Shown: positions 6,611-8,950 of the stretch, in pieces | How positions within the stretch are numbered: the stretch's first letter is position 1 | Layout: every line of letters begins with the position of its first letter | Virus record (IMG/VR): IMGVR_UViG_2681813261_000016 | Reading direction: 5' to 3' (one strand) | Length of the DNA: 10,334 nucleotides | DNA from: a virus | Lineage: Duplodnaviria; Heunggongvirae; Uroviricota; Caudoviricetes | Notes under the pieces: generated by a model | The model's database searches: none | What the model was told of the DNA's origin: nothing | The model's input: the letters and a program-made list of their open reading frames with translations, nothing else | Made by a program: the position numbers and the translations under genes

Positions 6611-8950
6611 ATGGCAAAAGGAAAATCCGCACTGGCACTTGCTCTGAAAAAGAAAATCGGTAGCAACGACGAAATTCAGAAAGTAACTCATTGGATTGAT
6701 ACAGGCTTTCCACCGTTAAACAAAGCTATTTCTGGTCGTTACGATGGCGGCTTCCCATGTGGTCGTATCGTAGAAGTATTCGGGCCACCAAGCGCGGGGA
6801 AATGTGTTACCGCAGACACCATGCTGCTGACGGAGCGTGGAATGGTAACAGTGAAAGAGTTGTTTGAGATTGAAGGGTACAAAGCGACATGCACTACTCG
6901 CGATGTAGAGCATAACGTTGGACTCATCAATGAAAATGGCGTGATAGAGAAGACCTCACACCTGACATGGAACAACCGTCGCAAATTCAAGCGTATTAAG
7001 CTGGCATCAGGCGGTTATATCGAGGCTACGTTCCGTCACCCAATCCGTGTGGTTGACGACTTAGGTAATGTCGTCTGGCGACATGCTGAAAAAATCAGTG
7101 TAGGCGACACGATTCCTTCAATGGTTGGCACACATCAATTCGGCGATCAGCACCTGGATGCCAATATCGCAAAACTGATGGGCTATTTAATTGCTGACGG
7201 ATACGTGGCCTCTGAAAATTCAGTGAATTTTTCTAACACAGATCCTTTCATCAAGGATGAGTACTACCGCCTCATTTCGCTGGTATCAGACAAGATGCCA
7301 GTTACGAGAAAACATAACGGCTCGGAAGACCATGTGCTGTTTAGCAAAGAGGTGCGTTCGCTGCTTTTTAAAGAATATGGTCTGGAGTATGAGAAAGCTG
7401 CTGGCAAGCAGGTTCCGTTGAGTGTGCGTCGCGCCAATAGCGAGGCTCAAATTGCATTCCTTCGCGGCTACTTTGAGCTGGAATGCCACGTCAATGATGG
7501 TCGCTGCATTGAGGTTGTGAGCGCGAGTGGGCTGCTGCTACAGCAAATTCGCCTCATGCTCCTGAATCTGGGGATTACGTCAACTATCTCTGAAAAACAC
7601 GTCGCGGTTTATGAAAATACATATTACCGGCTGTCATTCAGTGGCTCTAATTACGACCTTTTTCTGTCAACGATTGGTTTCGAATCTCCGGCACGTTTAT
7701 CAGTGGCAACCAAACGGGACATTGGTTTTGACCGCACTTACTCAGGCTATGTTCCGCACATCAGCGGCTTAGTGAAATCACTCTACGAGTCGCTCACCAA
7801 GACCACCCGTGAAGACTACGCTCTGGTAGACCACGTTATTGGCCGCGGCGATCGTGTCGGAATAGACAAACTGCGAGAAATCTATGTCTCCTTCATTGGC
7901 AGAAAGAATCGTTTTAACGAGCATCTGTTTGCACAACTGGCAGCGGTAATTGGCTCTAACTTGTTCTACGACGAAGTCGTGGCTATTGAGGAAGGTGAAG
8001 CACCAACGTTCGACGTAGCGATGCCGGAAACACACTCTTTCTGGTCTAACGGGATTATCAGCCACAACACATTCCTTGCAACAGCAGCGATGATCTCCGC
8101 TCAAAAACAAGATGGTCTGGCGGTATTCCTCGATCATGAAAACAGTTTTGACGTTGGCCTGGCTGTAGCCAATGGCCTGAACGCAGATGAGGATGACGGT
8201 CAGTGGGTATACAAGCAGCCAGATACCTTCGAAGACTCTGTAGAGTTGATCGGCACAATACTTAAATTGGTTCGTGATGAAGAGCTTATCCCCGAATCAG
8301 CACCTATCTGTATCGTGGCTGACTCTCTTGCGTCTATGGTTCCGAACTCCAAAGCCGAGAAGTTCGAAAAGATGGCTGAAGGCACTGCCAAAGACAAAGA
8401 TCAGCTAAACATGAACGACAATACGGCACTGGCTCGTGCGACAAGTGCGAACTTCCCTACTCTGGCTTTGTGGGCACGCAAATACAACGCCTGCATCATC
8501 TTCTTGAATCAGGTTCGCACAAAAATCGGTGTAATGTTTGGCGACCCTACTACGTCGCCAGGTGGAGATTCACCGAAGTTCTACGCTTCTGTACGTATCC
8601 GTCTTGGTGCATCGGTGATGAAGGATGGTAAAGAGAAGATCGGCCAGGACGTAGGCGCAGAATGCATCAAAAACAAAGTTGCACCACCGTATGGCAAATG
8701 CACCTGGAAATTCTACTTCGATCCTACTCGTGGCCTCGACGTTATCGAATCGCTCGTCGAGTACATGCTGGAAGAAGGATACCTGCCAAAGAACGCCAGC
8801 GGGCGAGTTGAAATTGGTGACAAGAAATACACCAAATCGCAGATCGTCGAGATGTATCGGGAGAAGCCACTGGCTGAAATCATTGCGGCTTTGCAGGCAA
8901 TCGACGACCGAAGAGCAAAAGACAACCCCACCGAGTCAGTAGAAGAGTAA
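6611..8950 (+). CDS. recA: RecA-family recombinase (bacterial-RecA-like) interrupted by an in-frame intein
   Basis: Extein segments match RecA: RIVEVFGPPSAGK (P-loop, N-extein), then after the intein FLDHENSFD, QPDTFEDSVELI, IVADSLASMVP, IIFLNQVRTKIGVMFGDPTTSPGGDSPKFYASVRIRLG. Spliced product would be 357 aa. RBS AAAGGAG at 6597-6603. Confidence 0.9.
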   Translation: MAKGKSALALALKKKIGSNDEIQKVTHWIDTGFPPLNKAISGRYDGGFPCGRIVEVFGPPSAGKCVTADTMLLTERGMVTVKELFEIEGYKATCTTRDVEHNVGLINENGVIEKTSHLTWNNRRKFKRIKLASGGYIEATFRHPIRVVDDLGNVVWRHAEKISVGDTIPSMVGTHQFGDQHLDANIAKLMGYLIADGYVASENSVNFSNTDPFIKDEYYRLISLVSDKMPVTRKHNGSEDHVLFSKEVRSLLFKEYGLEYEKAAGKQVPLSVRRANSEAQIAFLRGYFELECHVNDGRCIEVVSASGLLLQQIRLMLLNLGITSTISEKHVAVYENTYYRLSFSGSNYDLFLSTIGFESPARLSVATKRDIGFDRTYSGYVPHISGLVKSLYESLTKTTREDYALVDHVIGRGDRVGIDKLREIYVSFIGRKNRFNEHLFAQLAAVIGSNLFYDEVVAIEEGEAPTFDVAMPETHSFWSNGIISHNTFLATAAMISAQKQDGLAVFLDHENSFDVGLAVANGLNADEDDGQWVYKQPDTFEDSVELIGTILKLVRDEELIPESAPICIVADSLASMVPNSKAEKFEKMAEGTAKDKDQLNMNDNTALARATSANFPTLALWARKYNACIIFLNQVRTKIGVMFGDPTTSPGGDSPKFYASVRIRLGASVMKDGKEKIGQDVGAECIKNKVAPPYGKCTWKFYFDPTRGLDVIESLVEYMLEEGYLPKNASGRVEIGDKKYTKSQIVEMYREKPLAEIIAALQAIDDRRAKDNPTESVEE
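6803..8068 (+). mobile_element. Intein (422 aa) with LAGLIDADG homing-endonuclease domain, inserted in the RecA Walker A/P-loop
   Basis: Begins with Cys (TGT 6803-6805) directly after GPPSAGK; ends ...ETHSFWSNGIISHN (His-Asn, 8063-8068) followed by Thr +1 (ACA 8069-8071). Contains block A CVTADTML, block B TFRHP, two LAGLIDADG-type motifs (KLMGYLIADGYV and AFLRGYFELECHV), and the terminal block. Confidence 0.8.

Follow-up and report, generated by a model that had tools for sequence, protein, structure and literature searches.

A full-length LAGLIDADG intein in the Walker A P-loop of an SSU5-type phage-plasmid RecA

The RecA-family gene in the window (the whole stretch of viral DNA that was analysed, 10,334 nucleotides) carries an insert that is very probably a canonical class-1 intein, located in the Walker A P-loop of a phage-plasmid RecA and containing a two-motif LAGLIDADG homing endonuclease. 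The in silico tests that were run support the original prediction of a full-length LAGLIDADG intein that splits Walker A in a RecA homolog. The intein is already known, having been catalogued in 2015, and it is carried by hundreds of sequenced enterobacterial plasmids.

The intein and its host gene

The 779-codon RecA reading frame and the 422-codon insert that had been proposed were both recovered exactly (Table 1). In the translation, GPPSAGK is followed by Cys65, the insert ends in His-Asn (residues 485-486), and RecA-like sequence resumes at Thr487, which means that the insertion separates the Lys of Walker A from its Thr (GPPSAGK/C...HN/T). The terminal splicing blocks that the original prediction had described were recognised by profile HMMs, with scores above the cut-off for Pfam Intein_splicing (46.6 bits; cut-off 35.8), NCBIfam intein_Nterm (35.5 bits; cut-off 24.5) and NCBIfam intein_Cterm (16.9 bits; cut-off 15.6), and the best NCBIfam intein matches were RFC small-subunit inteins that begin at the P-loop. 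In an alignment of 8 related inteins, C1, T76 and H79 were invariant, and inspection of the sequence revealed that D404, H411, H421, N422 and Thr+1 were all present. In addition, five translated intein copies contained no stop codons and no length changes. The AF2 model of the intein (pLDDT 83.5, pTM 0.87) matched the structures of the GyrA, RadA, RecA and VMA inteins in Foldseek searches, which identifies the HINT fold. When the PDB was searched with the intein sequence, only endonuclease-domain matches (PI-PkoII and VMA inteins) and one match to the C-terminal block were obtained, and a fold search was required to reveal the kinship with RadA and RecA inteins. Base composition was also considered as a mark of foreign origin and gave no signal, because the GC contents of the intein (48.1%), the extein (48.8%) and the window (47.9%) are nearly equal.

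Both LAGLIDADG motifs were located, each with the acidic residue that had been predicted, and the second ends in a Cys at the position where a final Gly is usual. The endonuclease was likewise recognised by its profile, Pfam LAGLIDADG_3 scoring 62.3 bits against a cut-off of 22.5 with a match (215-292) that covers motif 2, and its fold matched I-DmoI, PI-PfuI and PI-PkoII in Foldseek. Taken together, the profile scores lie far outside what chance would give.

Table 1. Features of the recA locus, in nucleotide positions of the window
Feature	Position	Strand	Description
Upstream replication/recombination module	116-6608	+	Same strand as recA; PHROG matches
Pol III alpha-like polymerase	116-3634	+	PHROG match
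UvsY-like mediator	3760-4191	+	PHROG match
gp32-like SSB	4309-5337	+	PHROG match
5'-3' exonuclease	5347-6342	+	PHROG match
Conserved 90-aa ORF	6336-6608	+	Member of the upstream module
RecA-family recombinase precursor	6611-8950	+	779 aa with a predicted mass of 86.6 kDa; positions include the stop codon; ORF list and translation, Pfam RecA, Intein_splicing and LAGLIDADG_3
N-extein	6611-6802	+	64 aa, ending in Walker A GPPSAGK; protein equal to the intein-less CMS-2020a allele
Presumed homing site, upstream half	6767-6802	+	Junction-proximal GCGGGGAAA, common to 5/5 intein-bearing alleles examined, in any background
Intein	6803-8068	+	422 aa (precursor residues Cys65 to Asn486) with a predicted mass of 47.6 kDa; HINT splicing domain with nested two-motif LAGLIDADG endonuclease; profile HMMs, AF2 model, Foldseek
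Splicing block A	6803-6832	+	CVTADTMLLT; Cys1 is the first nucleophile
Splicing block B	7010-7051	+	GGYIEATFRHPIRV; TxxH residues T76 and H79
LAGLIDADG motif 1	7175-7201	+	LMGYLIADG; acidic residue D132; aligned with PI-PkoII motif 1; lies at the C-terminus of predicted helix 120-131
LAGLIDADG motif 2	7460-7486	+	LRGYFELEC; acidic residue E227; aligned with PI-PkoII GYFIGDG; lies where predicted helix 213-227 ends
Splicing block F	8003-8041	+	PTFDVAMPETHSF; D404 and H411
Splicing block G	8048-8068	+	NGIISHN; penultimate His421, terminal Asn422; NCBIfam intein_Cterm match 402-422
C-extein	8069-8950	+	293 aa plus stop; first residue is the Walker A Thr, the +1 nucleophile
Presumed homing site, downstream half	8069-8104	+	ACATTCCT, common to 5/5 intein-bearing alleles examined

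The host gene is a phage-plasmid RecA of the SSU5 type and not an orthologue of cellular recA. Pfam RecA matched the precursor in two stretches and the excised 357-aa product in a single one (145.8 bits), and the L2-loop region and ICIVADS, a Walker B-like sequence, lie in the C-extein. The host protein was nearer to RecA than to UvsX in a PDB comparison, and it scored 153.7 bits with the bacterial RecA equivalog model TIGR02012, below the cut-off of 325.3. All of the E. coli matches to the gene (252/252) were on plasmids. The window represents an SSU5-like phage-plasmid, its recA gene being 98.7% identical to that of phage Cyrano/pLF82, a near-identical, intein-bearing phage-plasmid that makes virions (PMC9928086), and the gene order of the upstream module was also found in Cyrano, in SSU5 and in L016, a distant relative from metagenomic data.

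Intein-less alleles and spread among plasmids

In silico excision of the insert yielded a product identical at 357/357 residues to a natural intein-less allele, that of Escherichia phage CMS-2020a (CP053388). As predicted, this product aligned contiguously to E. coli RecA, with no break over the junction (grivevfgppsagkTflataa). Intein-less alleles, which the original prediction had proposed to seek in related genomes, were also of further types, represented by p503025_100 (NZ_CP025894) and SSU5/pMT1; pHCM2 likewise has an intein-less allele. We compared 5 intein-bearing and 9 intein-less alleles base by base. The nine intein-less alleles have in common the uninterrupted site IVEVFGPPSAGK/TFLATAAM, which in the CMS-2020a type reads GGTCCTCCAAGTGCAGGGAAA followed directly by ACGTTCCTTGCA. 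Of the 12 synonymous differences between the window allele and the empty CMS-2020a allele, 6 lie no more than 34 nt from the insertion point, a clustering with P ~8e-7 for a fixed stretch and ~2.5e-5 after correction. The Thr+1 codon ACA was considered as a marker of intein-bearing alleles and was found not to be diagnostic, because an intein-less Citrobacter allele carries ACA too. The identities labelled 'down300' in the allele comparison were left unused, being artefacts of free end gaps over non-homologous downstream DNA.

The intein was present in 237 of the 736 plasmids that carry this recA and in 114 of the 250 E. coli genomes that have it. By genus, occupancy was 123/229 in Escherichia, 71/269 in Klebsiella, 41/91 in Enterobacter, 0/63 in Yersinia and 1/42 in Salmonella. 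The intein of the window is 96.8-96.9% identical to the copies in Klebsiella and Enterobacter, whereas identity falls to 78.6-84.4% in the exteins and to 72-82% in the neighbouring genes; dS was 0.09 for the intein and 2.2 for the extein. The dN/dS value of the extein was 0.01, which corresponds to strong purifying selection. Between Klebsiella and Enterobacter, the inteins are 99.8% identical and the exteins 84-85%. In addition, plasmid pCP53-113k carries a mosaic allele in which the N-extein is of the E. coli type (97.9%), the intein of the Klebsiella/Enterobacter type (99.2-99.4%) and the C-extein of the Enterobacter type (94.3%), and its breakpoint lies at the N-terminal intein junction. 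Judged from these sequences, the polymorphism, the discordance between intein and extein and the mosaic allele appear to be the footprint of recent homing, for which the clustering of substitutions near the junction is further indirect evidence. The discordance could in principle instead reflect ordinary recombination between plasmids, without homing driven by the endonuclease.

Proposed homing, possible decay and regulation

The mechanism that we propose begins with the translation of an 86.6-kDa precursor, which should be ATPase-dead because its P-loop is split. Cys65 would form a thioester, attack by Thr487 would give a branched intermediate, and cyclisation of Asn486 would set free the 47.6-kDa intein. 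An O-N shift would restore GPPSAGK-T, and the resulting active RecA, of 39.0 kDa, would be the same protein that intein-less alleles encode. The free intein would then act as a site-specific endonuclease against intein-less recA alleles on co-resident phage-plasmids, and recombinational repair would copy it into the cut allele. The boundaries of the target site in Table 1 are likewise presumptive, as deduced from the aligned alleles.

It is possible, although we consider it unlikely, that the intein still splices while its endonuclease is dead or dying, so that it persists by vertical inheritance and ordinary plasmid recombination at a late stage of the homing cycle. The Cys that replaces the conserved terminal Gly of motif 2 would fit such decay, as would an IS1 inserted within the endonuclease domain of the intein on one E. 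coli plasmid. In addition, every stage of decay occurs among the more distantly related inteins of this RecA site, the endonucleases of P0007 and P0012 being degenerate and P0013 and P0014 being mini-inteins. However, both catalytic acidic residues are kept in the window intein and align to those of PI-PkoII, and the dN/dS of the endonuclease domain (0.09-0.15) indicates purifying selection, although a value this low could also stem from constraint on folding or splicing and not from nuclease activity. The nearly identical inteins in divergent recA genes of Klebsiella and Enterobacter, the position of the mosaic breakpoint at the intein and an occupancy that is intermediate, neither fixed nor rare, also argue against decay.

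Less probable still is that co-option has made the intein a post-translational switch, so that splicing, and with it the activity of the phage RecA, would be withheld while the element is a plasmid (lysogenic) and would start in response to ssDNA, DNA damage or some other signal. By analogy, the intein shares its insertion site with the Pyrococcus horikoshii (Pho) and Thermococcus sibiricus (Tsi) RadA inteins, where intein-extein contacts, temperature and ssDNA govern splicing (PMC4513877, PMC5790916); moreover, Cyrano is induced by genotoxic stress (PMC9928086), and Cys1 is potentially a redox-sensitive nucleophile. The conditional role raised in the original prediction is purely speculative. 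Splicing could be gated because the intein splits the P-loop of the recombinase that the phage-plasmid itself encodes, beside UvsY-like and gp32-like genes, and we entertain, with low confidence, the idea that the intein is more than a parasite, its splicing being gated by ssDNA, DNA damage or redox so that recombination-dependent replication would be turned on only upon induction. If this were true, conditional protein splicing could be studied in a mesophilic E. coli system that is amenable to genetics and offers natural isogenic elements with and without the intein. However, about half of the otherwise near-identical phage-plasmids lack the intein and have an identical RecA protein; the intein is therefore dispensable, and it is distributed in the population as a selfish element would be. 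In addition, Topilina et al. could not model RadA-like intein-extein orientations for the E. coli RecA precursor (PMC4513877). A reading of the insert as no functional intein at all, but as a family-specific recombinase domain or a gene-inactivating insertion, is scarcely credible even though many RefSeq records call the whole protein simply 'LAGLIDADG family homing endonuclease', and it was rejected because orthologues with identical exteins lack precisely the insert and every splicing residue is intact; the open frames of the five translated copies and the strong purifying selection on the exteins likewise speak against it.

The preferred reading, a class-1 intein that has probably homed recently, carries little weight as a discovery because the element is catalogued in the literature and partly recognised in RefSeq, where some records are named 'intein-containing recombinase RecA'. 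A search for literature joining SSU5 or phage-plasmids with inteins returned nothing relevant, the prior report being situated in the RadA-intein literature. The practical value lies in a full-length, apparently recently mobile intein that is natural to E. coli, Klebsiella and Enterobacter. Since natural intein-less alleles encode an identical RecA, it offers a convenient mesophilic system for tests of phage-plasmid homing and of regulation by P-loop inteins. The annotation error is also widespread, being found in most of the RefSeq records examined: naming the precursor for its homing endonuclease hides the recombinase.

Comparison with known inteins

The insertion occupies the 'classic' site for P-loop inteins, which is listed as RecA/RadA insertion point c. 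Table 1 of Topilina et al. (2015) lists the RecA insertion point "c2 (65-486)" in 'RecA' of E. coli, Enterobacter and Salmonella and assigns this intein to the P-loop position that is also occupied in archaeal RadA (PMC4513877). The coordinates are identical to those of the window intein and the element is the same; the plasmid of E. coli MS 145-7, a strain named in that table, is 99.7% identical to this ORF. The original prediction had judged the intein worth documenting, and it is a real element, but one already on record. Topilina et al. treat the c2 host as bacterial RecA; 'phage' is absent from their main text, and 'plasmid', in the instances examined, denotes laboratory constructs (PMC4513877). 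On c2 they report modelling ('data not shown') and no splicing or cleavage experiment (PMC4513877). Our analysis corrects the context of the 2015 catalogue, the gene being that of a phage-plasmid and not cellular recA, and adds the prevalence figures and the homing footprints.

The Pho and Tsi RadA inteins (c1) share with the window intein a homologous recombinase family and the P-loop site, and their C-extein also starts with the Walker A Thr (TQLAHT...). The HINT fold is in common with the Pho RadA intein (4e2t; Foldseek E 9e-5), at ~21% identity over ~124 columns, which is a likeness at the level of the fold only. The Pho and Tsi inteins, which come from hyperthermophilic archaea, are mini-inteins that lack an endonuclease, whereas the window intein bears one, and conditional splicing in response to ssDNA and temperature is a feature shown for those RadA inteins. 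Independent invasions were inferred for the RadA and RecA P-loop inteins (Topilina et al., PMC4513877).

The mycobacterial RecA inteins, Mtu (PI-MtuI) at site a (residues 252-691) and Mle at site b (206-570) (PMC4513877), resemble the window intein in having the same host family and in being full-length and class-1 with Cys1, but their sites are at the monomer-monomer interface, whereas the window intein is in the P-loop, after residue 64. In the alignment to NF007072, the Mtu-type NCBIfam model, residues 20-269 of the spliced extein corresponded to positions 32-253, contiguously across the Mtu site, which therefore lies ~200 residues downstream of the insertion in the window. The splicing domain matched the Mtu RecA intein (2imz) weakly and at the level of the fold (E 1e-3). 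Novikova et al. (2016) reportedly listed 56 bacterial RecA inteins.

In overall architecture, the AF2 model combines HINT and LAGLIDADG domains as do TliVMA (7qss), PI-PfuI (1dq3), PI-PkoII (2cw7) and PI-SceI (1vde), the best Foldseek matches of the model, with TM values of 0.59-0.70, of which TliVMA gave 0.70 (Foldseek E 2e-21). Sequence identity to these inteins is 10-22%, and they differ in their hosts (V-ATPase, RNR, PolB) and target sites. Relatives 30-35% identical to the window intein occur in UvrD, UvsW-like and DnaB-primase proteins and in helicases of Staphylococcus, Listeria and Enterococcus phages. Other inteins inserted between the P-loop Lys and Thr (RFC-a, DnaB-b, MCM-a, TerL1-a, UvrD and the Twort-like phage helicases) are in different host genes and are far more divergent, but they have the same junction as the window intein, GK/C...HN/T.

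The insert in the RecA P-loop

The original prediction had placed a full-length LAGLIDADG intein in the Walker A motif of a RecA homolog. The size of the ORF, the limits of the insert, its flanking residues and the motif positions were all verified, and thus the observation is confirmed at the coordinates tabulated here; the interpretation as an intein is supported.

Features of the intein-bearing recA gene and its surroundings
Feature	Position (nt)	Strand	Source or remarks
RecA precursor ORF, 779 aa	6611-8950	+	ORF list, translation
Intein, 422 residues, Cys65 to Asn486	6803-8068	+	translation; IVEVFGPPSAGK before, Thr487 after
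LAGLIDADG motif 1, LMGYLIADG	7175-7201	+	located in translation
LAGLIDADG motif 2, LRGYFELEC	7460-7486	+	located in translation
Upstream genes: Pol III alpha-like polymerase, UvsY-like mediator, gp32-like SSB, 5'-3' exonuclease, small conserved ORF		same

When searched alone, the insert scored above the cut-offs of intein and LAGLIDADG profiles, with 46.6 bits for Pfam Intein_splicing (cut-off 35.8) and 62.3 bits for LAGLIDADG_3 (cut-off 22.5), and it passed both the intein_Nterm and intein_Cterm models of NCBIfam. Its excision in silico left a 357-aa product that matched Pfam RecA in a single stretch (145.8 bits) and aligned unbroken across the junction to E. coli RecA structures (grivevfgppsagkTflataa, no gap). 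All of the splicing residues are present, namely Cys1, T76 and H79 of block B, D404 and H411 of block F, His421-Asn422 and Thr+1; among these, C1, T76 and H79 are invariant in an alignment of 8 related inteins. The AlphaFold2 model of the intein (pLDDT 83.5, pTM 0.87) found its best PDB fold matches in endonuclease-bearing inteins: TliVMA (7qss; E 2e-21, TM 0.70), PI-PfuI, PI-PkoII and PI-SceI. The Pho RadA and Mtu RecA inteins were further matches to its HINT part, as was I-DmoI to its endonuclease part. In the two LAGLIDADG motifs, the acidic residues D132 and E227 align with their PI-PkoII counterparts and lie at the ends of predicted helices; the last residue of motif 2 is Cys rather than Gly. 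Judged from the sequence, the insert is very probably a canonical class-1 intein that would splice out of the precursor and restore GPPSAGKT, with an endonuclease that would be active now or have been so until recently.

Intein-less alleles and signs of probable homing

The intein-less alleles anticipated in related genomes were found. An insert-free version of this gene is found in Escherichia phage CMS-2020a, and the 357-aa protein that it encodes matches the product spliced in silico at every residue. The CMS-2020a DNA differs from that of the window at 12 synonymous positions, 6 of them no farther than 34 nt from the insertion site, a clustering with P ~8e-7 for a fixed stretch and ~2.5e-5 after correction for the choice of stretch. 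Uninterrupted IVEVFGPPSAGK/TFLATAAM (slashes mark junctions) is also encoded by SSU5, pHCM2, Y. pestis pMT1 and several plasmids of E. coli, Shigella, Citrobacter and Enterobacter. The recA genes of the plague plasmid pMT1 (Y. pestis CO92) and the typhoid plasmid pHCM2 (S. Typhi) show ~82-83% nt identity, with synonymous differences directly at the junction, GCCGGTAAA/ACCTTTTTG.

In PLSDB, the full-length intein-bearing form occurred in 237 of the 736 plasmids with this recA, and the intein taken by itself was found in 248 plasmids; of the 250 complete E. coli genomes with this recA, 114 had the intein. By genus, occupancy was 123/229 in Escherichia, 71/269 in Klebsiella, 41/91 in Enterobacter and 1/42 in Salmonella, and none of 63 Yersinia plasmids had the intein. 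Between the window and Klebsiella and Enterobacter plasmids, the inteins are 96.8-96.9% identical, the exteins 78.6-84.4% and the neighbouring genes 72-82% (dS 0.09 for the intein vs. 2.2 for the extein); between Klebsiella and Enterobacter, these values are 99.8% for the inteins and 84-85% for the exteins. The E. coli plasmid pCP53-113k is a mosaic in which an N-extein of E. coli type is followed by an intein of Klebsiella/Enterobacter type and a C-extein of Enterobacter type, with the switch at the N-terminal junction. The sequence GCGGGGAAA/ACATTCCT at the junction is common to all five intein-bearing alleles examined, and dN/dS was 0.09-0.17 over the entire intein and 0.09-0.15 within its endonuclease domain. 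Occupancy, discordance, mosaic, junction sequence and selection together are the footprints that would be expected of recent endonuclease-driven homing with co-conversion.

That the endonuclease is already dead is not our preferred reading and seems unlikely. A conditional-splicing switch co-opted from the intein, by analogy with Pho RadA, would be compatible with a splicing class-1 intein; it is quite improbable, and is weakened because about half of the near-identical elements lack the intein. Profiles, splicing residues, fold and empty alleles all support a full-length LAGLIDADG intein, and a non-splicing domain or a pseudogene maker is hardly credible.

Two further copies were also observed. 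In an E. coli plasmid (CP059946.1, 732-1502), the endonuclease domain is interrupted at ORF nt 616-623, just past LAGLIDADG motif 1, by an insertion of 771 bp that has duplicated 8 bp of its target; the ORF of the insertion resembles the InsA/InsB protein of IS1, and the insertion inactivates intein and recA alike. Of the intein copies seen, that of E. albertii p3RM15112 (CP043255.1), a 62-kb derivative, diverges most, at 93.9% nt identity; from ~4570 on, its C-extein parts from recA after ~300 nt, giving a truncated 614-aa ORF with no CDS annotated.

The phage-plasmid context

The window belongs to a phage-plasmid of the SSU5 type. Its RecA precursor ORF shares 98.5-98.7% identity with Escherichia phages PhiR41_1 and Cyrano, and many E. 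coli plasmids match it at up to 99.7%. Cyrano, a virion-producing element, is the plasmid pLF82 from E. coli LF82 (PMC9928086). From its sequence, the host protein is assigned to the RecA-family recombinases, nearer to bacterial RecA than to UvsX, and scored 153.7 bits against the NCBIfam recA equivalog, below the 325.3 cut-off. All 252 places of the gene in E. coli were on plasmids, and none was chromosomal.

Downstream, at 9247-10076, a deletion of 1 nt near 9694/9695 (GGACA-CGC vs. GGACAACGC in Cyrano) breaks an SPFH/stomatin-like lipoprotein gene into two ORFs (9247-9702 and 9720-10076), where Cyrano and SSU5 each have one ORF of 831 nt. The gene has either become a pseudogene through this frameshift or been misread in sequencing. 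Between the Pol III alpha-like and UvsY-like genes, the window has ~125 nt (3635-3759) and Cyrano ~2 kb with a hicA/hicB toxin-antitoxin pair (3048-3896 of the compared record); this gap is a variable moron slot.

The wider family and known RecA inteins

In an exhaustive HMMER search, 4598 cluster representatives had E<=1e-3, and 186 reached E<=1e-30. Among 161 retrieved relatives, 106 had RecA-type exteins and 95 had GxxxxGK/C, and thus RecA P-loop inteins are common in metagenomes, including in orthodox RecA. Relatives at 30-35% identity reside in UvrD, UvsW-like and DnaB-primase proteins and Twort-like phage helicases, and those at the RecA site represent all stages of endonuclease decay, including mini-inteins. 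A distant metagenomic relative (ENA ERZ27257820 k141_7541, 7001-9388) keeps the order polymerase, small ORF, gp32, exonuclease and RecA with intein; its intein is 44% identical at an unchanged site. An in-frame TGA (~8435-8437) replaces the conserved Trp of HSFWSNG there, so that gene calling yields two fragments; this TGA may be a recoded stop, may have arisen by nonsense mutation or may reflect an error in sequencing. Five metagenomic RecA proteins of ~1100-1160 aa (P0020, P0030, P0073, P0102 and P0150) contain two inteins each, the first at the P-loop (GK/C...HN/T) and the second with the junction ...VVHN/SPETT, within a conserved PETT.GG stretch matching the RecA L2-loop region.

Among the RefSeq records shown, the 779/780-aa precursor is mostly named 'LAGLIDADG family homing endonuclease' (e.g., NZ_CP029421.1, NZ_CP034047.1) and in a few 'hint domain-containing protein', so that its RecA function is hidden in most of these annotations; GenBank records use 'recombinase RecA', and 'intein-containing recombinase RecA' is limited to some Enterobacter records among those shown.

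For inteins in P-loops, the K/T junction is the 'classic' position (PMC5050341), and Topilina et al. 2015 defined five RadA/RecA insertion points (PMC4513877). The word 'phage' is absent from the main text of the latter, where the uses of 'plasmid' that were noted refer to laboratory constructs, and our literature search found no other paper discussing this element; the phage-plasmid context, prevalence figures and homing footprints appear to be additions to prior knowledge. The intein itself is already known, since Table 1 of that study lists a 'c2 (65-486)' intein in the RecA of E. coli, Enterobacter and Salmonella with coordinates exactly equal to those in the window, a plasmid of E. coli MS 145-7, a strain listed there, is 99.7% identical to the window ORF, and some RefSeq records already name the protein as an intein-containing RecA. 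In contrast, the mycobacterial RecA inteins (sites a and b) occupy different insertion sites.
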